A stretch of DNA of 41,232 bases from a virus (Duplodnaviria; Caudoviricetes): IMG/VR virus record IMGVR_UViG_3300044698_000136, positions 1-41,232 of that record, one strand, 5' to 3'. A program made the position numbers and the translations under genes. Of this stretch, positions 890-37,096 are shown piece by piece (position 1 is the stretch's first letter; each line of letters opens with the position of its first letter). Under the pieces are notes generated by a model, which was given only the letters and a program-made list of their open reading frames with translations, did not search any database and was not told where the DNA came from.

Positions 890-1045
890 TCACGACGCCC
901 GCTCCGTCGGAAGTTGCTCACCCAAACGGTGAAGATGCTTGTAGACCGCCTGCGGTGAAATGTTGAGATGCCGGGCAACCTCAAGGACCGTCAGCCCTTT
1001 GCCGAGAAGCTCTCGCACTCTGTCCTTTGTGGGTTTGCTTGGCAT
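890..1045 (-). CDS. Cro-like small HTH regulator, first gene of the early operon
   Basis: GLTVLEVARHLNISPQAVYKHL helix-turn-helix; ATG 9 nt after the -10 box (near-leaderless). Confidence 0.8.
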   Translation of the reverse strand: MPSKPTKDRVRELLGKGLTVLEVARHLNISPQAVYKHLHRLGEQLPTERAS

Positions 1046-1197: not shown

Positions 1198-1533
1198 ATG
1201 ACGACGAAGTTTCGATCCATCGGGGACATGCTCAAAGACCGTCGGGGCGACGGACAGAAGTCCGACGTGTACCGGAAGCTCAACGTGAGCGCCGGTACCT
1301 ACAACAGTTGGGAAAGCGACATGTACGTTCCCGGCGACGAGTACGCAGAGGAACTAGCCGACCACCTCGGCATCGAGTACAAGGACATGGTGTGGTACCT
1401 TCACCTCGCCCGCAAAGCAAAGGGGGGGGCGGGGCCACTTGACATAACGTGGACTCCGGGCATTCACCAGCCGGGATGGTTCGACCGGCCTATAGAAGTG
1501 TTCGCCGGTGATGGGATACTCAGAGTCGCATAA
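1198..1533 (+). CDS. XRE-family HTH repressor (CI-like) with an unstructured C-terminal tail
   Basis: AAGGAGG SD before ATG 1198; KSDVYRKLNVSAGTYNSWE...P...LADHLGI matches the XRE pattern; divergent from the Cro-like gene. Confidence 0.8.
   Translation: MTTKFRSIGDMLKDRRGDGQKSDVYRKLNVSAGTYNSWESDMYVPGDEYAEELADHLGIEYKDMVWYLHLARKAKGGAGPLDITWTPGIHQPGWFDRPIEVFAGDGILRVA
1437..1464 (-). other. dif-like XerC/XerD site, candidate attP
   Basis: Minus strand AATGCCCGGAG-TCCACG-TTATGTCAAGT; the right arm matches the mycobacterial dif XerD arm as I recall it; the left arm is degenerate. Confidence 0.55.
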
Positions 1534-1554: not shown

Positions 1555-1827
1555 ATGTCCTCCGTCCACCGTGGCGACTACCAGCGGATGCGCCACCACA
1601 TGACCATCGCCCTCCTCGAAGCCGAAACAATGGAGCCCAAAACCCAGATCGCATACGCCAGAGGAGAAGTACCCGCTGTCCTCCCCGCGAACATGGGGTT
1701 AGTCCGGTTACTGCTCATCAGAGCAGACAGGGTCACCAGGGACACGCTGGACCGGCTGATAGCCACCCACTACGACATTTACGCCGACCGGACGTACACC
1801 GACCGGCAGCTCGCCGAAAGCGCATGA
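1555..1827 (+). CDS. hypothetical protein in the repressor operon
   Basis: 90-aa ORF filling the gap between repressor and lipoprotein. Confidence 0.65.
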   Translation: MSSVHRGDYQRMRHHMTIALLEAETMEPKTQIAYARGEVPAVLPANMGLVRLLLIRADRVTRDTLDRLIATHYDIYADRTYTDRQLAESA

Positions 1828-1843: not shown

Positions 1844-2131
1844 ATGAGGCTAATGATCGCAGCCGTACTCCTGTTGGCAGGATGCAGCGGAGAACCCCCG
1901 ACGATCGACAACACCGACGTCGAACAGTTGCAGGACGAGCTTGGCGCCATCAACGAATGCACCGCCGAATGGGATGCCTACGTCGACGAGTGGAACGCCC
2001 TGACCGTAGCCAGAGACGAGGCCGGTGACGACAACGTCGTTGTCGACGGCGTAGCGTACGAGGACTATGAGTCGTACGCCACGGCTAAGGGGTATCCACT
2101 CAGCTTCGAGGAACACTGCCCCGAAAGCTGA
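1844..2131 (+). CDS. lipoprotein, possible superinfection exclusion
   Basis: Signal peptide with lipobox LLLAGC; acidic mature region; position in the immunity operon. Confidence 0.75.
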   Translation: MRLMIAAVLLLAGCSGEPPTIDNTDVEQLQDELGAINECTAEWDAYVDEWNALTVARDEAGDDNVVVDGVAYEDYESYATAKGYPLSFEEHCPES

Positions 2132-2873: not shown

Positions 2874-2978
2874 CGGCGAGAGAAGGATTCGAACCTCCGG
2901 AGGGTCGGGGAATAGAAGAGCCCCAACCCCCACCGAGTTAGCAACCCGGCGCATTCAACCAGACTCTGCCATCTCGCC
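2874..2978 (-). tRNA. tRNA-Ser(GCT), 105 nt, extra-long variable arm, CCA not encoded
   Basis: Acceptor GGCGAGA/TCTCGCC, G73, D-loop GG, anticodon arm CCGGG-TTGCTAA-CTCGG, T arm GGAGG-TTCGAAT-CCTTC. Confidence 0.92.
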
Positions 2979-12087: not shown

Positions 12088-12431
12088 TCAGCCACGTTCT
12101 CCGTATGCGCGTCCAACGCGGCGGACAGTTCCTTAGCCGTCGCCTGGTTCAACCTGCGGATCGACTGCTTAGTTGGCGGTTCCCTGAGCCCGTCCGAATC
12201 GGTGAACGACCAGTCCGAAACCCACGCCGCCAACCGACACACCTCGAACTCCGGCCAGTCAACATCAAGGTCCAACTCTTTCGAGTTCGGGTTGACCTTC
12301 GAAACCATCGCACCCATCTCAACAGCAGCCTGCTCCGAGAACGACAGTTCAGACCTGAAGTCCACCCAATCCCCGTCGGAAAGTTCGAACCTGGACACCG
12401 CCGTGAAATCGGTGAAACGAGGTCCGCCCAT
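12057..12431 (-). CDS. tail assembly chaperone (gpG-like)
   Basis: Between major tail and tape measure; ends in DPK at the slippery site. Confidence 0.85.
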   Translation of the reverse strand: MGGPRFTDFTAVSRFELSDGDWVDFRSELSFSEQAAVEMGAMVSKVNPNSKELDLDVDWPEFEVCRLAAWVSDWSFTDSDGLREPPTKQSIRRLNQATAKELSAALDAHTENVADPKVSAAEPS

Positions 12432-12838
12432 TACGTGACCGCCCTAGTCAGGGTTCCGGAACCTTGCAGCGAGACGGGCGCCATCACCGCGTCACCAATT
12501 GACCCGCCGATCGGCTGGTAGGAGGTGACAACCACGTTCCCCTCATAGGACGGGTTGGTTGTCGTGGTTGTGGCGTCGTCGGCTTTCAACTCGAAAGCGG
12601 TGACCGTCCCGACAAGTGAGAACATGGTGATGTCCACTTCGCCCGCGGCGTAGTCCTGGTTGAATTCGAGGGACACAGACCACGCTTTCAGGCCACCCAA
12701 ATATTCGCGGGTGCCGTCACCCGACGCGGTGAACTCGGGGGAGTCCGCTGTGTAGGTGAGTGTCGCCGACTTCAAATGGTCGGACAGGTCCACAGAGTTG
12801 ATCAGTACTTGCGGTGTCAAAAAGACAAATTCCGCCAT
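12431..12838 (-). CDS. major tail tube protein
   Basis: INSVDLSDH...REYLGGLK...NPSYEG...GGSIGD; strong SD. Confidence 0.85.
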   Translation of the reverse strand: MAEFVFLTPQVLINSVDLSDHLKSATLTYTADSPEFTASGDGTREYLGGLKAWSVSLEFNQDYAAGEVDITMFSLVGTVTAFELKADDATTTTTNPSYEGNVVVTSYQPIGGSIGDAVMAPVSLQGSGTLTRAVT

Positions 12839-12881: not shown

Positions 12882-13598
12882 TTAGGCGATGCCTACGGAG
12901 ACAGCGATGAGTGCGGAGTCGGTGTTGACACCCAACACCCAACTTGCCCGGTACCAGGTATCGGTGATGGCGCCGTCCGCTGTTGCGTACTCACCGCCAA
13001 CGTCTGTGAGTTGGGCGAAAGTGATTTGGGTTTCGGGAGTGTCAGTGAACGCTTCCAGCGTGTCCGACTCGACAATGACATCCACCTCCGGGGAAGACCC
13101 AGCAACAGCCAAGACATGAAGCGACGCCCGGAGTTTCTGCCCTGCGGCGACAGCCCCCAAATTGAAAGCCGTACCATCATCTGTAGCGACTTCGCTACCG
13201 TTGTTGACGATCAGTCCCCTAGTGACGAGCCCTGATACCTGGTTCGAATTCGAGAACTCATAGGCTTCGCCGATCTGCGCACCCGGCGCATACGACGTGG
13301 TGAGCTGATTGAAAAAAAACGCCACGTCACCTTCCACCCCTCCGTCCGGGGTGATCGTCGTGTTCCGAGCTGCGGCGGCCATGTTCGTGAACAGGTCGTT
13401 GTCCACGGGCCCATCGAAGAACCCTTGATGTTCCGATCCGGCGCCGATAAGCCCACCCTTGTATTCTCTTGTGGTGTCGCCGAAAGCTGTGAACTCGGGT
13501 GCGTCAGCGTCGAGAACCAGTGCGTGTTGTGAATACGACCCGGACAGGTCCAACCCGGCCACGTACTGTTTCGGGTTGAGAAGGACAAGTTCACCCAT
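12882..13598 (-). CDS. tail tube-like protein with an extra C-terminal domain
   Basis: N-terminal half aligns with 12431..12838 (DLS...D.PEFTA.GD.TREY.GGL). Confidence 0.75.
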   Translation of the reverse strand: MGELVLLNPKQYVAGLDLSGSYSQHALVLDADAPEFTAFGDTTREYKGGLIGAGSEHQGFFDGPVDNDLFTNMAAAARNTTITPDGGVEGDVAFFFNQLTTSYAPGAQIGEAYEFSNSNQVSGLVTRGLIVNNGSEVATDDGTAFNLGAVAAGQKLRASLHVLAVAGSSPEVDVIVESDTLEAFTDTPETQITFAQLTDVGGEYATADGAITDTWYRASWVLGVNTDSALIAVSVGIA

Positions 13599-17741: not shown

Positions 17742-18482
17742 CTATTTGATCTGCCCTCGGACCTCGTCGACCAACCCGAGTTCGAGGCATTCGTCGGAAC
17801 TGATCCACCAGTCTTTCCGGTTCCAATTCCGTTTCACCCTCTGGGCGGTCAACTTCCCGCCGGAACGGCTAACGAAAATGTCGGTGATCCGCTTCTCGAT
17901 CCGTTTGATAAGTTGAACCATGTCCTCCACCTCGTAGGTCGACCCGAACGTGAGGAAACTGGCCCGGTGGATCAGCAGCCAACACTCCTTAGTGAGGTAA
18001 CGTGTCTGGCCGGCCTGGACGAGGATCCCGGCCATCGAAGCGGCCATACCCACCCCACCCGTAACAGTCTTGTGTCCACGCTCACCGAGTTCGGTGATGA
18101 AGTCGAACAGTTCCATACCGTCGAAAATGCTTCCGCCCGGTGACGAGAAGATCACTTCGATAGTGCATTTAGGGTCGAGGCGGTGCCATTCGGTCAGTTT
18201 CGACATGCACGCATGCACCGAACTGGCTGACACTTCCCCGTCGAACCTGTACACCCGGTGGTATTCGTCGGAAGCCCGTCGTGCTGCGTCGGCTTCGACG
18301 GCCTGCGCCGACTTCAACTCGGTTTCGATAGTCCGAGCCAACGCCGCCCTGGCCTCGTATCCGAACGTGACGGCTTCCGCCCGGGCTTTCTCAGCCTCGG
18401 CGAGAGCCTTCTCCGCTTCGGCGGCCAGCTTTATAGCGTTCGCTTCCTGCTCTGCAGGACTCGGCACGTAGGCGTCGGACAT
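17742..18482 (-). CDS. clpP: ClpP-like serine protease with an N-terminal coiled coil
   Basis: SSPGGS, GMAASMA (Ser), LIH (His), RKDWW (Asp), LGLVDEV. Confidence 0.88.
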   Translation of the reverse strand: MSDAYVPSPAEQEANAIKLAAEAEKALAEAEKARAEAVTFGYEARAALARTIETELKSAQAVEADAARRASDEYHRVYRFDGEVSASSVHACMSKLTEWHRLDPKCTIEVIFSSPGGSIFDGMELFDFITELGERGHKTVTGGVGMAASMAGILVQAGQTRYLTKECWLLIHRASFLTFGSTYEVEDMVQLIKRIEKRITDIFVSRSGGKLTAQRVKRNWNRKDWWISSDECLELGLVDEVRGQIK

Positions 18483-18647: not shown

Positions 18648-19025
18648 TCAGACCAGGTAGTGGGCTTTGATCGAATACGTTTTCGCTGTAGCGTCCGACT
18701 TGGTAGCTACCACACGCCACTTGTATTTGAGGCTCGTGTTTTCGGACACGTTCGCCCGGTCAGGAGCGTCCGGGTGCGCCAACAACATGGTCGTACCCAC
18801 GTTGGTGATCGCCGAACCGGCGAGACGTTCAGTCCACTCACCGTCCTCAAGTTTGTCTTCGATGCTGACAGTGACCGTCCCGGTTGTGGCAGCGGTCACG
18901 TCAAGGACGAGCAGCACACCCCGGTAAACGCTCGGGATACCGTCAAGCGGTCCCGACGTTGAAGTGGCGGTGTGGGCGGCCGATGCCAGAATGGTCACCG
19001 GTTGGGCAGGTAATGAATAAGGCAT
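18648..19025 (-). CDS. putative head decoration / structural protein
   Basis: Beta-rich; two genes after the capsid gene. Confidence 0.6.
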   Translation of the reverse strand: MPYSLPAQPVTILASAAHTATSTSGPLDGIPSVYRGVLLVLDVTAATTGTVTVSIEDKLEDGEWTERLAGSAITNVGTTMLLAHPDAPDRANVSENTSLKYKWRVVATKSDATAKTYSIKAHYLV

Positions 19026-29508: not shown

Positions 29509-29905
29509 CGTTCAGCTCCTTCAGTTTCGCGACTTCGGCTTTCCAGTCGACCTTCGCTCTTGACTCCCGGTGCAACCGGACAAGCCCACGCAACTCATCA
29601 AACCGACCCGGCAACAACCCATCAATAAAATCGTGCCAGTGAGCGATACGAGGCGTGAAAAACATGTGGTGGGCCTGACACATCGCAATAGCGTTATCCG
29701 GGTTCACCCGAATCGCGATCTCACCCCGCCCAATGATGTGACAGCACTGAAGGTTCCCCGAGCAGGCCACGTCGTAGGCGCCTGCCGCCCTACAGCGGCC
29801 ATCTCGAGCCCGGATGAAAACGGAAAAGAGTTTGTCGCCCTGCTTCATATAGGCAGGTTTCTTCTTCCGTTTTTTCGGCCCTGGCCCTTTAGGACGCTGA
29901 GACAT
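29489..29905 (-). CDS. NinG/Rap-like HNH-fold nuclease
   Basis: DKLFSVFIRARD..C...QCCHII.R...R.NPDNA...C..HH. Confidence 0.8.
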   Translation of the reverse strand: MSQRPKGPGPKKRKKKPAYMKQGDKLFSVFIRARDGRCRAAGAYDVACSGNLQCCHIIGRGEIAIRVNPDNAIAMCQAHHMFFTPRIAHWHDFIDGLLPGRFDELRGLVRLHRESRAKVDWKAEVAKLKELNDAQAAR

Positions 29906-30570
29906 CAGGACACCGTCGCAAACTGTGAAGCGAACTGCTCGCCTATGAATTTGGTGTACGCCGGAGGAACGGCTTCGGAGAGCTCCCGGACTGTAATTTC
30001 CCAGTCCACCCCCATCGCCGCCTTCTGGCGTTCCAACGGTTCGTCCCACGCGCCGACTTCGATGGTGTACCGCAGGTTCTCCCGATCAGTGGACGACTTG
30101 AATTGCCGAGTCCACCCCTTGTGATTGCACCCACCAGGAGCCATCGCGTCCCAATTGCCCAACTCGAACCAACGGTGACGGCGAACGTCCAGGCTGAACA
30201 TGGAGCCACAGAGGACAAGGTCGGGCCGTATTGGCGCGCCGGGGACGTTCTCGATGATGTAGGGGACACCAGACGCCTCTAACAGTCTCCTAGTGGGCTC
30301 AATGAGGTCTTCGTACCGTTCAGTGATGTCCTTCACCACGTTGCGATACTTGGTGAAATGCTGGCAGGGTGGGGAAGCGTGGATCAGGTCGGGTTGCACG
30401 AACCCGATGCCCCACGGCCCCTCATCTATCGTCATGACATCGGCCTGAAAGAACGTGAACGGATAATTCGGTTGAGGCTCTATGTCCAACCCGACGATCT
30501 CGGAGAACCCGGCTTGTGAGTAACCCATCGCAGCTCCACCAGCTCCGGAATACAGGTCGAGGAGTTTCAT
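29905..30570 (-). CDS. C5 cytosine DNA methyltransferase (short actinophage type)
   Basis: LDLYSGAGG, SPPCQ, ENV, RRHRWFE, EAVPPAY. Confidence 0.88.
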   Translation of the reverse strand: MKLLDLYSGAGGAAMGYSQAGFSEIVGLDIEPQPNYPFTFFQADVMTIDEGPWGIGFVQPDLIHASPPCQHFTKYRNVVKDITERYEDLIEPTRRLLEASGVPYIIENVPGAPIRPDLVLCGSMFSLDVRRHRWFELGNWDAMAPGGCNHKGWTRQFKSSTDRENLRYTIEVGAWDEPLERQKAAMGVDWEITVRELSEAVPPAYTKFIGEQFASQFATVS

Positions 30571-30743
30571 TTCAACCCGTCCATGAACTTGCATTCCCCA
30601 CACTTGGCGATCGTCCTAGCCCTACCCACCAGCCGCGCCGACGTTTCACCACGCTCCCCACACGACAAACATTTGACGACCGCCCGGCCCACCAAGTTCG
30701 ACGGATACAAGTTCTCAGAGCCTGGACGAACCCTGGCTTTCAT
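30567..30743 (-). CDS. small Zn-ribbon protein
   Basis: CLSCG...CGEC; ATGA coupling. Confidence 0.65.
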   Translation of the reverse strand: MKARVRPGSENLYPSNLVGRAVVKCLSCGERGETSARLVGRARTIAKCGECKFMDGLK

Positions 30744-31447
30744 ACTTCCCTGGTACATTCCACCCTCACCATTCCCCTCCCAGACGCGTACACTTCGGTG
30801 AACCCCTTCCCGTCACAAACCTCGCAGTCGATGTGCGCCCACAACCGGGTTGACTCCGCTAGGAACTCCCGGTCGTTCTCGGCTATGTGATGGCCCAACC
30901 CGCCGACGGTCTTGACCGGGATGCCTTCAAACTTCCTTCGTTGAGCTTCGGCCTTCGCCCGGGTCAGGTGGAATTCTGCGAAGCTTTCTGCTGCTGCTTT
31001 GTCACTGTCACTCTCACTGTCACTCTCAGTACTTCGTAAATCCCCGGATTCCGTTTGCGTTTCGGTCGTATTCGTGCGCTTTGACCTGGCGTTTCTTTCA
31101 CGTGTCACTTCACTGTTCGCCGTGTTGTTCCAGTCTTTCCAAGCTGTTATTTGCACGTCCGTGATGCGTCCGCGTCGTCTCTTTCGTGTCTGTTTGAGGT
31201 GTCCTGTCACTCTTAGGAACGTGTCCAGTTCGAACGGCGGTTCGGTTATCCCCAGGCTCGCCCAAGCCTCCGCGTCCGTGGTGTAAGAGAAGGTGCCTTG
31301 GATGTGGGCGCGTTTGGCGGCGGTCAGCATCGCCGTCCACACTCCGATACCGGCCGCGCCGAACTCGGTTTGAAGTCGGGTACCCGTCTTGTCGAAAGGG
31401 AATTCGACCGATAGTGGTATCCAACGTCTACGGCGACCATCCGTCAC
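30740..31447 (-). CDS. putative replication initiator / replisome organizer
   Basis: WIPLSVEF...FGAAGIGVW N-terminal domain, WKDWN, basic helix, low-complexity ESDS linker, C-terminal CEVCDGKG. Confidence 0.7.
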   Translation of the reverse strand: MTDGRRRRWIPLSVEFPFDKTGTRLQTEFGAAGIGVWTAMLTAAKRAHIQGTFSYTTDAEAWASLGITEPPFELDTFLRVTGHLKQTRKRRRGRITDVQITAWKDWNNTANSEVTRERNARSKRTNTTETQTESGDLRSTESDSESDSDKAAAESFAEFHLTRAKAEAQRRKFEGIPVKTVGGLGHHIAENDREFLAESTRLWAHIDCEVCDGKGFTEVYASGRGMVRVECTREV

Positions 31448-31497
31448 ACCGCCCCCTCTCCGTGGGGCATGGCATCATCCAATTTGACCCAAGCCAC
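31444..31497 (-). pseudogene. 17-aa relic of another initiator N-terminus
   Basis: MAWVKLDDAMPHGEGAV; coupled at both ends (TAGTG, GTGA). Confidence 0.5.
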
Positions 31498-32249
31498 TAC
31501 GACACCGCCTCCAACTCACGCCAACAACCAGTAGTCGAATGGTCCGCTACCAGTCCACCGCACACCTCGCAGCGGAGAGTGCCCACCGTTTCGTATTCGA
31601 CCACCGGAACACCCGGAGTAGTCGGAGTGACCCGGCGGTGCCGGTGATCCGGGTTCGGCTGGTACATTTTCCCGGTCGGGGAATGAACCCTCAACGGGAC
31701 AGGTTCCTCCATCAACGCCCGGAGGGTGCGCAAAGTGCCGGCCAACACGGTACGGAAGTTCACGGCCTGCAACGCCACTGCCTGAGGGCCGCTGACCCGT
31801 CTGCCGATCTCTGCTTTCGTCCACCCACGCCGGACCAGCTCACGGACAATCCGTTTCGCCTCCCCAGCGGGCACCTTCGCCCCATCAGCCACGTCCAACC
31901 GGGTCCACAACAGTTTGATTGCTGTCTCCCTCCGCAACCGCCTCGACGGAGCCATGCCTCGGGTGTAGTCGCCGTAGATGAGCTTCGACACAGCGCCATG
32001 AGGAACACCGGAAACCACGGCGATACGCTTCGGTCCCATCCCGGCAGCCATCAACATTTCGCAGTGTTCCCGAACCGGGCCAGCGTCCACCATCGGATGA
32101 CGGGTGATCCCAGCGTTGTATTTGATCCGCCGCCGGTCAGCAGCCTTACGAGCCGCCCCACAGTCGGCGCAGCGGCACCCATCCAATACATACCGGGCGT
32201 TCGTACCGCACTGGTGGTCGGTCTGCTTGTGGAGACAAGGAGGATTCAC
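31497..32249 (-). CDS. HTH DNA-binding protein with a GCRC Zn motif
   Basis: GT.ARY..GCRC..C; VDAGPVREH...GMGPKRIAVVSGV. Confidence 0.75.
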   Translation of the reverse strand: MNPPCLHKQTDHQCGTNARYVLDGCRCADCGAARKAADRRRIKYNAGITRHPMVDAGPVREHCEMLMAAGMGPKRIAVVSGVPHGAVSKLIYGDYTRGMAPSRRLRRETAIKLLWTRLDVADGAKVPAGEAKRIVRELVRRGWTKAEIGRRVSGPQAVALQAVNFRTVLAGTLRTLRALMEEPVPLRVHSPTGKMYQPNPDHRHRRVTPTTPGVPVVEYETVGTLRCEVCGGLVADHSTTGCWRELEAVS

Positions 32250-32728
32250 TTCAGACACCATCCGAGGTTCGATCGGTGGAGGGCTGCAGCGTTCTCCTCG
32301 CCCACAGCCACCAGAAGAGAGGCGAAGCGGGCTGTCCACCCCCGGTCATCACCAGGCTGAACAAACTTCACCCGACCCCGGACAAAACACAGCGCGTCAG
32401 CCTTCTCGGCCGCACTCTGAAACAAACGAGTGGAAGTGTCGCTTTGGATAAAGGCGATCCCGTTGCCATGGTCCATCAGTCGCACCACCCAAGGCGCCGG
32501 GTCGGAATAGGGCGGGTTCAGCCACACACGACCGGACCACGGACGACTCAGGCCGTCCTCGGCCTCTGTGTAATGCTCGGCCGCGGGTATCCACGGCACC
32601 CCACCAACAGGCGCGCAAGGGTCAAGGTCGTATGTCAGACCCAACGCGTCGATGATGTAAGGCGGCGTGTACCAATCGTCGGTACCCATCGCCTCAACCT
32701 CCGGGAGAATTCCGGGCAGTCGACTCAC
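32246..32728 (-). CDS. phage N6-adenine DNA methyltransferase (Dam-like)
   Basis: DDWYTP, LDPCA, DGL..PW, WLNPPY. Confidence 0.88.
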   Translation of the reverse strand: MSRLPGILPEVEAMGTDDWYTPPYIIDALGLTYDLDPCAPVGGVPWIPAAEHYTEAEDGLSRPWSGRVWLNPPYSDPAPWVVRLMDHGNGIAFIQSDTSTRLFQSAAEKADALCFVRGRVKFVQPGDDRGWTARFASLLVAVGEENAAALHRSNLGWCLK

Positions 32729-33696
32729 TCAGCGCCCACGTCGAAGATCAGATCCGAACCCGAACCCGACAAGTAAGTTTTCGGCAAAACTCCGTCCCAC
32801 CTTTGGAGACGAGTCCACTCCAAGTATTCGACTGGAGTGAACCCGAGGGCTGCCGCAACCTCTTCGATCGCTTCGCGTTCCGCCTTGGCGACTTCGATAC
32901 GAGCCTGCGCGGCACCCTTCGCCGTAGCGATAACCTGATCAGCAGCGTGCTTTGCGGCGTCGACAAGCCGTTGCTGTTCGGAAGCCTTCTGATCGGCGAT
33001 GATCTTCGCCTCAACAGCAGCAAGGAAGTTCTTCGCGAATATGGCGTCCTTGACGTTGATGCTTTCGACCACGATCCCGTAAGGTGCCAGCCGGTCCTCT
33101 AGGGCGACTCGCACCTTTTCGGCGAGCGCCGCACGATTCGCAGCAAAATCGATGGCAGCGAACTGCCCGACGGACTGTGTGACCAGCTGGAGGACAGCCG
33201 GGGCGATAACAGTCTGCTGGTAGTTGAGTCCGACCGCCTGATACAACTCCGCTGCCTGGTCAGGTTGAATGTGGTAGTTAACCGCGACAGGGACCGTGAC
33301 TTCCTGCAAATCCAGAGACTGGGGGTAGACCTCAACCTCGTAGACCAGTGTCCGGACGTTAACCATCCGAGCCGACTGCACCCACGGGATGACGAGGGAA
33401 AGCCCTTCACCCCGCTCCACAGGCGACACACCGCCTCCCAGGTTGTAGATTGCCGCCCGGTGTCCAGGGGGGGTTATCACAAGGGCGGGTAGGAGCACAG
33501 CAGCAGCCACAAGGCCGATAACCGCCCGTTTCCCGGCCCCGGCAACGTATTGGCGTTTACCCTTACGAGCAACACCATCCGTTTCCGTGGTGGGCCGGTG
33601 GGAGCCTTTGAAATAGACCACCAGCACAGCCACCACGGCCACCAGGTACAAGAACGGCTGCACCAGTATTTCCAAGCCGAACGAATCAAACATCAC
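32725..33696 (-). CDS. SPFH/prohibitin (band 7) membrane protein
   Basis: Two N-terminal TMs; PPGHRA, GEGL..VIPW, SLDLQEV, AVEAKIIA.Q, RWDGVLP. Confidence 0.92.
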   Translation of the reverse strand: MMFDSFGLEILVQPFLYLVAVVAVLVVYFKGSHRPTTETDGVARKGKRQYVAGAGKRAVIGLVAAAVLLPALVITPPGHRAAIYNLGGGVSPVERGEGLSLVIPWVQSARMVNVRTLVYEVEVYPQSLDLQEVTVPVAVNYHIQPDQAAELYQAVGLNYQQTVIAPAVLQLVTQSVGQFAAIDFAANRAALAEKVRVALEDRLAPYGIVVESINVKDAIFAKNFLAAVEAKIIADQKASEQQRLVDAAKHAADQVIATAKGAAQARIEVAKAEREAIEEVAAALGFTPVEYLEWTRLQRWDGVLPKTYLSGSGSDLIFDVGAE

Positions 33697-33931
33697 TCTT
33701 CTCCTTTGGGTATTCGGTTTTGATGGTCACCCACCCGGCCTTCTCCGCGTAGAAGGCAGTCGCTTCTTCAAGCGACGTGAACTCGTGGCGCTCTGGAGAT
33801 CGGGAGTAATACGGTGATACGAACCCCGGTTTGAAGACGATCCACCGCTTCTTCCCGTTGAGCTCGTTGACCTCGTGGATGATCCGCCACGTAGGACTCC
33901 TGTCAGGTTTGGGCTTACGTCGTAATCTCAT
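33686..33931 (-). CDS. hypothetical protein
   Basis: ATGA coupling. Confidence 0.65.
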   Translation of the reverse strand: MRLRRKPKPDRSPTWRIIHEVNELNGKKRWIVFKPGFVSPYYSRSPERHEFTSLEEATAFYAEKAGWVTIKTEYPKEKSDV

Positions 33932-34386
33932 TGCTCTCCTTCTTCTCTTTCGAAACCGTCACGTTCCCCAGTACGAGAATCGTCCGGAACTACAAACACC
34001 AGATCCCCCGGATACGGCGCGTTCTTCGACCACGCCTGCGTCAACCCTCCATCGAACGTGGGCCAAATCTTCTGGCCGGTCAGAATGCTCATGCAATCCG
34101 ACTCCGACCCGCCGTACCCCTGCTCGCGGATACCCCGACAGAAGCCCGGTTGCACCTTCGTGAGAGCAGGCGCCGAATCGTCCGTACCGCGGCATTCGCG
34201 GGTGGTTTCGGGGTTGGGTGCCCCCTGGTTCTGCCAGAACGACACACCCGCGCAGTACCCTTCGACCTCGCTCTCAGCTAAACGTTGAAGGTTGGCGTCG
34301 AACAGGGGAACCCTTCCGGGGTCGCGGATCAGGTAGAAACCTCCCCCGACGATCGCCAACAAAGCCAGGACAGCAAGCTTCTTCAT
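33928..34386 (-). CDS. single-pass membrane or secreted protein with 4 Cys
   Basis: MKKLAVLALLAIVGGGFYL signal/TM segment. Confidence 0.75.
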   Translation of the reverse strand: MKKLAVLALLAIVGGGFYLIRDPGRVPLFDANLQRLAESEVEGYCAGVSFWQNQGAPNPETTRECRGTDDSAPALTKVQPGFCRGIREQGYGGSESDCMSILTGQKIWPTFDGGLTQAWSKNAPYPGDLVFVVPDDSRTGERDGFEREEGEQ

Positions 34387-35108
34387 GAGAACTCCAGGAC
34401 GCCTTGCGCGAGACGTTGGACGGCTATCTCGCAGTAACGCTCCTCGATTTCGATACCGATGGCTTTACGCCCCAAGTCCTTTGCTGCGCGGAGGGTCGTG
34501 CCGCTCCCCATGAAGGGATCTAGGACGGTGTCGCCTGGCACCGCTGACATGATCTGATTCAGAAGACCGATCGGTTTCTCAGTTGGGTGAATACGTCGAT
34601 CTGGCGAAACACCCTGTTGAGTAAGAACTGAGCCGCGTCCTCGATCGAGCATCTCAGCGGGTTGCCCAGCGGAAGCAAAGATGATGTTCTCGTGCTGATT
34701 ACGCCAATACGACCCCATTCCGAAGTGCGTTTTAGCCCATACCAATGTGTGGTTGACGCGGTATCCGTGAGCTTCCAACATCCCGTAAAGAGTGGGGGTC
34801 ATGCGCCAGTCGGTGAACCAGTACATGTGAGCGTGTTCAGCGATGACCCGACGTAGGGGAGATAAAAGACTGCGCGCGAACCAGTTGAATCCCCAAGTGG
34901 TCATGGCATCATGTGAAAACCAGTCCTCGTCTTCCATCGAGCGCAGCATTGAGCCACGCACTTGCTTATCGGCGTCTCGACGCGCGCCAGAGGCGTAAGG
35001 TGGATCAGTTAGGAGAAGTTCTACGGACTGGTCTGGAATATCCGCGATGACGTCACGGCAGTCCCCGTGGTAGATGGTTATCCCGTCCTCGTCGTAGTAC
35101 GGTTTCAC
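34383..35108 (-). CDS. N6-A/N4-C DNA methyltransferase, beta class
   Basis: GDC, TDPPY, HPTEKP, LDPFMGSGTT, GIEIEERY. Confidence 0.93.
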   Translation of the reverse strand: MKPYYDEDGITIYHGDCRDVIADIPDQSVELLLTDPPYASGARRDADKQVRGSMLRSMEDEDWFSHDAMTTWGFNWFARSLLSPLRRVIAEHAHMYWFTDWRMTPTLYGMLEAHGYRVNHTLVWAKTHFGMGSYWRNQHENIIFASAGQPAEMLDRGRGSVLTQQGVSPDRRIHPTEKPIGLLNQIMSAVPGDTVLDPFMGSGTTLRAAKDLGRKAIGIEIEERYCEIAVQRLAQGVLEFS

Positions 35109-37096
35109 GATGTCGCCTCCATTTCGTCGAGGGTCCGGTGAATCTCATCGCCGCTCACGGTTCCGTGTTCGACCAGCAGCCGGGCGACAGCCTCAACCTG
35201 CTCCTTACGAGGCGCCAGAAGCTCCCAGGTCTTGCCCCACGCATCAGCAAGGACAGATTCGCGCAGCTTGTGAAGTTCCTCCGGGTCACGTTCCGACCGG
35301 AACGACGACAACTGTCCCGACACCTTCCCCGAACCGTCCACAGTGAACGTGTGACCGTTATAAATAATCTGTTCGGCCACCCGAGTAGCGTTGGGTCCGT
35401 CGCCGCCGTGACCGTTCGAAGCCTCACCAACAATCAGAAGTTCAGCCACACGAGAAGCCTGAGACACGCAGATGTTCGCCATCATCTCCCCATGCCGCTC
35501 CTGCCAATCATCCGAATGCGGGGAAGGGGCGACCATGCCCCCGGTGGTTCCGCGTTTCTCGATCGACGCGAACCAAATGTCCATGCGGTCACGTCTCAGG
35601 TAGTGGGAGGCGACAGCATGCCCGGCCTCATGGACGGCCGTATTCCACCGGATATCCTCAGCTTCGGCCAGACCGTCGGATTCGCCGAACCGAACGGCGA
35701 TCATCGACGCCATCAGATCAGCCCGTTCAACAACCCCACTCCCACCACGGCGCATGTTCCGCAGGAGGGCTTCGTTGACAATATCCCGGATCTCAGCACC
35801 AGTCCCCTTGTAGTGGTTGCGGGCAGCCCACTCCACGTCCTCATCGGTGAGGGAGTGGTTCACCTTCCCCAAATACCCTTGGTAGGTGCGGAGTTTCCCG
35901 TCGAACTTCGGACGGCCAACGTAGACTTCCCGACCGAACCGGCCAGCTCTTTTGAGTGCGGGGTCGATGGCTTTCGGACGGTTCGTAGCGCCGATCATCA
36001 TGTACCTGTAATCCGGGGGGGGAAGAGGTTTGAACCCGAGCAGCGACAGGATCTTGTTGAGCAGGCCCCTAGGTTCGGCCATCCCGTCCATACCTGAGAG
36101 GAAGCTTTCGAGGGTGCCCATCTGCCCGCCGCCCGTCACAATGATCGGGTTGGGTTCGACAGGTTCAGGGAGGGCGCAGCAATGGTCAATACGGTCGGTT
36201 TCCTGTTCGACTTCGCCGCCACGGTGCCCGAGGGAGTCGATTTCGTCTATGAAAACGATGACACCCTGATACCGCATCGCCAGTTTCCGGATCGACCGGA
36301 ACAGGACATGCACCTTCAGGATGTTGATCCCGACAAAAGTTGCCTGGAAAGCACCAGGAGGAACCAGGATCAGCGGTTTAGTCGAAGCGTTCGCGACGGC
36401 TTTCGCCAACAGGGTTTTCCCGGTACCCGGTGGACCATGCAACAAGACACCCTTCGGCAAGTAGCCACCCGACCTGGTGAGAGCCTTATCGTTTTCGAGG
36501 AGGTCGACCTGCTCCATCATCTTCGCTTTCGCTTCGTCCTGACCCCACACATCATCGAACGATTCGGTGATCGTTCCCGGATAAACGAATTTGACGAAAC
36601 CGACTTTGACCATGGCGTAGAACATGGCGGCCATCTGAAACAGGGAGAGGGCGATGACGAGGGCGAGTTGGAGCATCATCGGGATCTGCTCCACAACCAT
36701 TTTCGGCGCCAACATCACACACTGGACCGCCGAGTTGCAACGGTCGGTGAACTGGTTTATCAACAACCCAGCCGCGTACACCCCTCCGAGAATGGTGAAG
36801 GTCCGTCTGATGCGGAACCGGGCGTTGCTTGAGAACCGGGATTGGAATTCTGCGAACCTTGACCGCCAATCCGACTGTCGTAACACGGCGGCTTTGGAAA
36901 CTTCCATCCGCCACGTCCACCACTGGCGGACGATCTCCACGACCAAAAGGGCGTACATGAGTTTCGCCATGGTGGTGGTCGAGTAGGGGCGGGGGTCAGT
37001 GGATTCGGCTAACGCGATATACCCGATGATGAACGCCGAGAGGCGTACCCGTTCGAAGGTGATCAGTGGCGGCCGGAGGCGTATCTTCTTGCTCAT
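35105..37096 (-). CDS. FtsH-like membrane AAA+ zinc metalloprotease (AAA plus M41)
   Basis: N-terminal TMs; GPPGTGKT; FVG pore loop; FIDEIDS; ATNRP..IDPAL.R.GRF; HEAGH; RVAE; GGD. Confidence 0.92.

Follow-up and report, generated by a model that had tools for sequence, protein, structure and literature searches.

A dif-like site inside the repressor gene of an integrase-negative tailed phage: a candidate immunity switch run by host XerCD

The window is the whole stretch of viral DNA analysed here, 41,232 nucleotides in length. It is a circular, siphophage-like genome of approximately 41 kb with a 127-nt terminal repeat; CheckV puts its completeness (record G000) at 62%, although terminal repeats are present. 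PHROG and Pfam matches identify genes for terminase, portal, capsid, tail, endolysin and WhiB, and the phage is classed by its gene content as an actinobacterial siphophage-like phage. No integrase is found among 65 ORFs scanned with PHROGs or 64 scanned with Pfam. A six-frame search of the window returned no match to PF00589 (tyrosine integrase) or PF07508 (serine recombinase), while control genomes did match; a match to PF00239, also serine recombinase, has 12.4 bits, is under the cut-off and lies antisense to a neck gene. Partition genes are absent among the 65 ORFs. A tRNA-Ser(GCT)-like sequence with a long variable arm (2874-2978, minus strand; 32-nt insert) scores 52.8 bits with Rfam and is missed by ARAGORN. 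There are two or three genes, adjacent or close to each other, with matches to major-tail-protein families (12431-12838, 12882-13598 and 18648-19025, minus strand), and three DNA methyltransferases are encoded in 29905-35108.

The control region lies near the start of the window. The cro-like HTH gene (890-1045, minus strand; 51 aa) has PHROG and Pfam HTH matches and is the first gene in the leftward, lytic direction; it shares 65% identity with the gene that occupies the cro position in L019, an integrase-bearing relative. The repressor-like gene rep (1198-1533, plus strand; 111 aa), also with PHROG and Pfam matches, consists of an HTH core, a dif-containing tail and a -VA end. The two genes are divergent, as in integration-dependent immunity of the BPs type. 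Between them (1046-1197) are an inverted 10-mer (1076-1085 and 1128-1137), the two copies of which are putative operators, and an AAGGAGG ribosome site preceding rep; a promoter scan of this interval found no sigma-70 consensus promoter. Rep is followed by a gene for a 90-aa helical-hairpin protein (1555-1827, plus strand), which occupies the integrase slot of the relatives and is a candidate recombination accessory factor. Behind it on the repressor strand lies a lipoprotein-like ORF (1844-2131, plus strand) with a weak Rz-like match only; it is possibly a superinfection-exclusion gene.

The sequence-only reading described a 28-base dif-like site (11-6-11) in rep, and the site is confirmed: 1437-1464 on the minus strand reads AATGCCCGGAG-TCCACG-TTATGTCAAGT. 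It encodes PLDITWTPGI (codons 80-89), lies behind the HTH_3 domain (residues 21-60) and is followed by 22 residues ending in GILRVA. The XerD arm TTATGTCAAGT (1437-1447, minus strand) matches the commonest Acidimicrobiia dif at 11 of 11 positions. The 6-bp overlap TCCACG (1448-1453, minus strand) is the same in the host dif and in three further phages, L021, L142 and L259. The XerC arm AATGCCCGGAG (1454-1464, minus strand) is degenerate, with up to 7/11 matches to host variants, and has lost the inner ATAA, as had been observed earlier. Overlap (6/6) and XerD arm together give 17 consecutive bases identical to the Acidimicrobiia dif, and the whole site matches at up to 24/28. The XerD-arm 11-mer occurs once in the window genome, where about 0.005 exact copies are expected; allowing up to two mismatches, there are 3 copies against 4.6 expected and thus no enrichment. 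A matrix built from host sites scores the window site at 32.7 bits, compared with 1.2 for the second-best site and a maximum of 8.4 across 10 shuffled genomes. Two related contigs which differ on both flanks have no listed change at 1437-1463, a comparison of low power. The dif predicted for Frankia alni has an identical XerD arm (PMC3025954). The sequence-only reading had attributed this arm to mycobacterial dif; the Acidimicrobiia dif is the better match, and the likely host is a member of Acidimicrobiia and not Mycobacterium.

The host dif was predicted ahead of the genome scan, by joining the XerC arm of L021 to the XerD arm of the window. The scan returned 116 loci. Among the 80 whose titles were listed, 56 are Acidimicrobiia or a subgroup, 10 other Actinomycetota, 10 Acidobacteria, 2 Kiloniellales and 1 Clostridia, and 1 has no name; the Acidobacteria-labelled loci probably belong to the same clade, because most have the same flanking amidase. 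The Acidimicrobiia dif reads [A/T][G/A]CGCCCATAA-TCCACG-TTATGT[C/A]AAGT, and bases beyond the query (CGCCC) are also conserved at the host sites. Overlap plus XerD arm are present in 127 of 401 genomes of one order (the 127 include two unpublished genomes, G196 and G282, on which no other result depends) and in none with the reversed control; the arm variant found in L142, TTATGTAAAGT, is common among host genomes of that order. Of 5 genomes tested, 4 have one copy of the host dif; genomes with two copies were set aside, as most appear to be strain or assembly duplicates. The complete chromosome G001 has a single site, 3.6 degrees from the dnaA antipode, and its GC skew reverses between the points sampled at 1.30-1.32 and 1.43 Mb. 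A single site near the terminus, where GC skew flips, identifies this sequence as the dif of the Acidimicrobiia group. Genes resembling xerC and xerD are found in both host genomes searched for them; short tyrosine integrases are frequent in such hosts as well (20 matches in G176). Relatives of the window capsid (up to 50% identity) are present in 13 of the 401 genomes, which supports the Acidimicrobiia host assignment. A weak HTH match 1.7 kb from dif (L067) proved to be a host gene.

Two phages with comparable sites, L021 and L142, were located via the 90-aa gene, which is 87% and 60% identical to that of the window, respectively. In both, as in the window, this gene follows the repressor gene. 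Few other genes are shared between these phages and the window, and each encodes a different repressor protein. The L021 repressor ends in RLRAA and its gene contains, read forward, TGCGCCCATAA-TCCACG-AAGTGACACCG, in the opposite orientation to the window site (peptide APIIHEVT). The L142 repressor ends in ASQAA; its site, AGGGTCCTGAA-TCCACG-TTATGTAAAGT, has the orientation of the window but is read in another frame (VTLHNVDSG). L021 keeps the XerC arm and has a degenerate XerD arm, whereas in the window and L142 it is the XerC arm which is degenerate; in all three phages the kept arm, whichever it is, equals the host arm over all 11 bp. The host-site matrix gives L142 29.5 bits (shuffled maximum 9.6) and L021 17.1 (maximum 10.2; 10 shuffles each). 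Conservation at the nucleotide level, the check proposed in the sequence-only reading, is thus borne out: overlap and one arm are kept as DNA while the peptide differs, L142 using another frame and L021 the opposite orientation. The records of L021 (G405) and L142 (G406) contain no match to PF00589 or PF07508 and no match to PF00239 over the cut-off. G406 has terminal repeats, yet its CheckV completeness is 54%; G405 is linear.

A 15.7-kb complete phage (record G408) has a site matching overlap and XerD arm at 17/17 (L259, 3000-3027, minus strand). This site is intergenic, upstream of an HTH gene, and no integrase match was found in G408. Other searches for similar cases were not productive. 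A codon-degenerate DNA pattern for the peptide LDITWTPG had 0 matches in IMG/VR, and a pattern of the XerD arm with a partial XerC arm had 17 viral matches, none of them within an HTH gene; in L016 the site falls in an unrelated small ORF.

Rep ends in ILRVA-stop (1516-1533, plus strand), an ssrA-like end which is a putative degron on account of the C-terminal bias of its family. A homologue search of 1.84 billion representatives gave 61 matches, from which the short single-domain proteins were retained; with additions from further searches, the family set comprises 49 proteins including that of the window. Their HTH cores are alignable and their tails are not; 33 end in AA and 7 in VA (40/49), whereas such ends occur in only 4 of 273 long ORFs from the hosts and, among 48 genes of the window, in rep alone. 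Window Rep ends in VA where the canonical end is AA, and the host tmRNA tags end in ALAA in 5 of 5 genomes. In L019 and L020, the only homologues for which the metagenome scan supplied DNA, cro and rep are followed directly by a tyrosine integrase gene. The background of the rep family is the layout of integration-dependent immunity. The window also encodes an FtsH-like protein with AAA and M41 peptidase domains (35105-37096), an SPFH/Band 7 protein (32725-33696) and a ClpP-like protease (17742-18482), all on the minus strand, in addition to an S78 prohead protease; the FtsH-like, SPFH/Band 7 and ClpP-like set could act on a tagged repressor.

The tails of the family were also compared with the dif core after back-translation. 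Tails of 14 of 46 homologues fit the core better than all 60 shuffles (the test omits the window and its two closest relatives; controls gave 1/46 and 0/47). The fitting tails, in four frames, are of the types IIHVM/IIHGM, PRYVK, STLCK and LDITW, and one of the 14 (P0058) is probably spurious. Because IIH and LDITW tails helped to suggest the dif core, independent matches come from the PRY and STLCK frames only; all are protein sequences, which are not assignable to integrase-negative phages. One of the family, P0057 (protein only), ends in VPIIHVM-stop, which corresponds to a TAAAG-type host dif in which the stop codon falls within the XerD arm; such an end is what would be expected of a prophage form. 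The longest contigs are equal in size for P0025 and P0081 (4812) and for P0001 and P0070 (864), a hint that the repressors of these pairs also adjoin the 90-aa gene. The rep tail DNA of the integrase-positive L019 (941-960) resembles, by eye, a tRNA 5' end, which suggests that tRNA-targeting members exist within the same repressor family. The rep tail of L020, also integrase-positive, contains a palindromic site around TCCGCG (910-937) which resembles the dif core; it scores 5.6 bits against up to 6.8 in shuffles, and is possibly an evolutionary intermediate.

For the 90-aa protein, neither Pfam nor PHROGs gave a match; matches to DUF3653 (at E<=1) and to HTH are likewise absent. All 25 members of its family end in A (20 SA, 4 IA, 1 VA). 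The structure model (pLDDT 78.6) has two long helices, and a fold search with it returned nothing at E<=0.001, generic hairpins only. Complex prediction with a stand-in XerD from G001 (score 0.00) weighs neither for nor against an interaction. No homologue was found in the genome contigs collection or in GenBank phages, and no close one in 401 and 351 partly overlapping host genomes. Distant homologues are present in 4 host genomes (45-47% for the two scored); three of these adjoin att ends formed by tRNA fragments, and at least one of the islands (10 kb) encodes its own integrase. Such positions point to an att-linked function and imply that the family is not specific to Xer.

Elements which exploit Xer recombination, such as VGJphi and the gokushoviruses, integrate through host XerCD. 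In the mycobacteriophages BPs, Brujita and Charlie, rep contains attP, and an ssrA-like tag is lost on integration (PMC3694055, PMC4557955). As far as the available sections of these papers describe it, the window shares with the BPs type the divergent cro and rep, an att in the 3' part of rep, an ssrA-like C-terminus, a tailed actinobacterial phage as carrier, and a second gene behind rep whose product also ends in A. It differs in that it has no integrase, that the target is dif and that the 90-aa helical protein fills the slot; compared with the same sections, the frame of the window yields no immediate stop. The sequence-only reading knew of no described example of a tailed dsDNA phage combining the two strategies. 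A dif-type attP in a repressor gene is known in inoviruses, but no published case of the combination with a degron in a tailed phage was found. The accessible text on phiRSS0, a Ralstonia inovirus, places a dif-type attP inside ORF13, with integration by host XerCD and loss of 26 C-terminal residues (PMC3816273), and that on XacF1, a Xanthomonas inovirus, places one in the regulator gene ORF12, again used by host XerCD (PMC5666396). The window resembles both in having a dif-type attP inside a phage regulator gene. However, these are filamentous ssDNA phages of Proteobacteria for which the same text describes no degradation tag; the window is a tailed dsDNA phage of Actinomycetota with a repressor of the BPs-type family.

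Excision has been addressed in TLCphi and the gonococcal island, where the degeneracy of one arm restricts excision driven by FtsK, and TLCphi also requires an activator of its own, according to the parts available of PMC6744903. From the same source, a 28-bp double-stranded attP in which one arm is degenerate, accompanied by a small gene next to it, is common to TLCphi/XafT, the gonococcal island and the window. L021 has the TLCphi geometry (degenerate XerD arm), from which the window and L142 differ. Unlike XafT as described there, the 90-aa protein matches neither DUF3653 nor an HTH, and the attP of the window lies inside a repressor gene. The Vibrio dif-type double jelly-roll prophages are integrase-less dsDNA phages with a dif-like attP and a pair of repressor and small regulator (PMC12715192, PMC9966536); they are non-tailed, unlike the window, and an attP within the repressor is not described in the accessible portions of these papers. 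The element would work both like the BPs switch and like an IMEX (an element exploiting host Xer); it departs from the former in that no integrase was found behind rep, and its integration at dif, as in the latter, is a prediction.

The reading preferred here is integration-dependent immunity run by host XerCD at dif, in which the repressor would be stable only once the phage is integrated; its probability is put at roughly 65%. This combination of a host XerCD attP with a repressor switch had been proposed from the sequence and is supported, with integration and the effect of the degron as its inferred parts. Incoming phage DNA would produce the 111-aa Rep, which Clp proteases would degrade via its ssrA-like end, making lysis the default. 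XerC and XerD would then recombine attP with dif. One junction would be a perfect dif, with the host XerC arm and the phage XerD arm, and the other would have the degenerate XerC arm and would resist FtsK-driven excision. The prophage rep would encode residues 1-85 and then continue into host DNA, the tag being gone. The truncation of Rep first proposed stays part of this reading, with one correction to the retained part, given earlier as HTH-LDI: because the overlap is the same as that of the host, the integrated phage would retain 85 residues of Rep, up to ...PLDITW, and 26 would be lost. The 90-aa protein, A-ended and in the integrase slot, likely helps or directs recombination. Excision limited by a degenerate arm, together with a 90-aa accessory factor, is inferred by analogy with TLCphi and the gonococcal island.

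Junctions of the window were built in silico with 121 host contexts. The products have a median length of 108 aa and a minimum of 89, and 2 have an AA/VA end; in the frame of the window, integration gives no immediate stop and the new tail is host-dependent. With the same number of contexts, AA/VA ends arise in 4 products of L142 and in 0 of L021; 47 L021 products terminate in SS or VM, in most cases at the XerD arm. Prophage junctions of these phages, for which a search had been recommended, did not come to light: contigs of 4 runs, of which X1 may be the source and X2-X4 are small shares, contain no loose end at the site, and neither rep nor the 90-aa gene lies next to dif in the host loci fetched. 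The rep profile matched 0 of 401 genomes in a search run without a positive control. Eight inspected contigs from the 13 genomes with capsid relatives contain no rep, 90-aa gene or matching dif. The absence of prophages is weak evidence, because the genomes are mostly fragmented assemblies.

It is unlikely that a dif-type attP works and the phage integrates while loss of the tail leaves the stability of the repressor unaffected. The AA/VA end could be a relic or serve turnover in both states, the window itself ends in VA, the prophage form would acquire an arbitrary host tail, and for phiRSS0 the role of truncation is only a hypothesis in the accessible part of PMC3816273. Against this, the end recurs in 40 of 49 homologues with unalignable tails, compared with 4 of 273 host ORFs, and the L021 and L142 repressors, though different proteins, also end in AA. 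Quite unlikely is a role of XerCD confined to the phage DNA, namely the resolution of concatemers or of dimers formed by a plasmid-like prophage, with rep rebuilt unchanged and no switch. Such a role would agree with the failure to find a prophage junction and with the site of the small complete phage G408, which lies outside any repressor gene with its 17/17 match. It would need two good arms, yet one is degenerate in all three phages; it would leave the overlap unconstrained, yet the overlap is that of the host. The lack of partition genes among the ORFs scanned also argues against it, and the position of the site corresponds to that of attP in the integrase-bearing layout.

Integration at dif could also be carried out by an integrase acting in trans, from a co-resident Xer-like phage or island, with the tag switch unchanged. 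This is very unlikely: host identity of one 11-bp arm in three phages, with either arm serving, is the pattern of Xer-exploiting elements, and XerC/XerD-like genes exist in the host. The TCCGCG-centred palindrome of L020 is the kind of site that would favour an integrase, as is the frequency of short tyrosine integrases in hosts such as G176, but the palindrome scores below the best of the shuffles. Highly improbable is a site that is merely an integration relic, a chance match or a promoter-like sequence. The arm does contain TTGACA, and viral contigs of low GC content can match a 16-mer by chance (5/7 matches). No promoter was called, however, and the matrix score far exceeds those of the shuffles; L021 retains the other arm, which has no TTGACA there, and the lack of change at 1437-1463 in the two contigs with differing flanks points the same way with low power. 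Recurrence in three phages largely refutes this explanation.

Host XerCD acting at dif, the preferred reading, may be extended tentatively to a family of tailed Acidimicrobiia phages. Here a portable module would have replaced the integrase, with either arm and either orientation kept; the module would comprise a dif mimic in the tail of any repressor, an ssrA-like tag and the 90-aa tag-bearing protein. Within this extension, and no more firmly, the 90-aa protein may represent a new family of Xer activation or directionality factors, and catalysis by host XerCD may be the decision step. A search of open-licence PMC and bioRxiv full text found no paper on a tailed phage which uses XerCD with a tagged repressor. 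On that search, the combination of tailed phage and degron switch has no published precedent, while truncation of a repressor by a dif attP is already known from inoviruses. If the switch is real, Xer hijacking extends to tailed phages of Actinomycetota, whereas the literature found covers filamentous, satellite and non-tailed elements. It would also mean a further reduction of what is already the simplest genetic switch known, with a host housekeeping recombinase in place of the integrase, and lifestyle predictors based on integrases would class such phages as virulent. For Acidimicrobiia, the analysis also yields a consensus for dif and a marker of the host, along with a candidate second family of Xer accessory factors.

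Other elements occupy dif in these hosts. Islands bounded by a full dif and a half-conserved copy are found in host chromosomes in both geometries: the L047 element has the geometry of L021, while L083 contains an 8.2-kb satellite-like element and a 3.7-kb island in that of the window, located between trxA and the amidase, which also flank empty dif sites. L083 (1745-13713), L047 (9999-12983) and L082 (from 1812) make up a second family of dif-inserted elements in Acidimicrobiia, with a common gene of about 233 aa just inside the junction that has the degenerate XerD arm. The ORFs scanned in the 8.2-kb element include DUF3987 and small terminase genes and no integrase; its 3.7-kb neighbour encodes a pair made up of an IrrE-like and a DUF4411 protein. 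At another locus (L064 / L207; G278:C61, approximately 28.7-29.2 kb) there are three dif-like copies in 0.45 kb, one of them inverted and overlapping with the full site; these are likely scars of earlier insertions.
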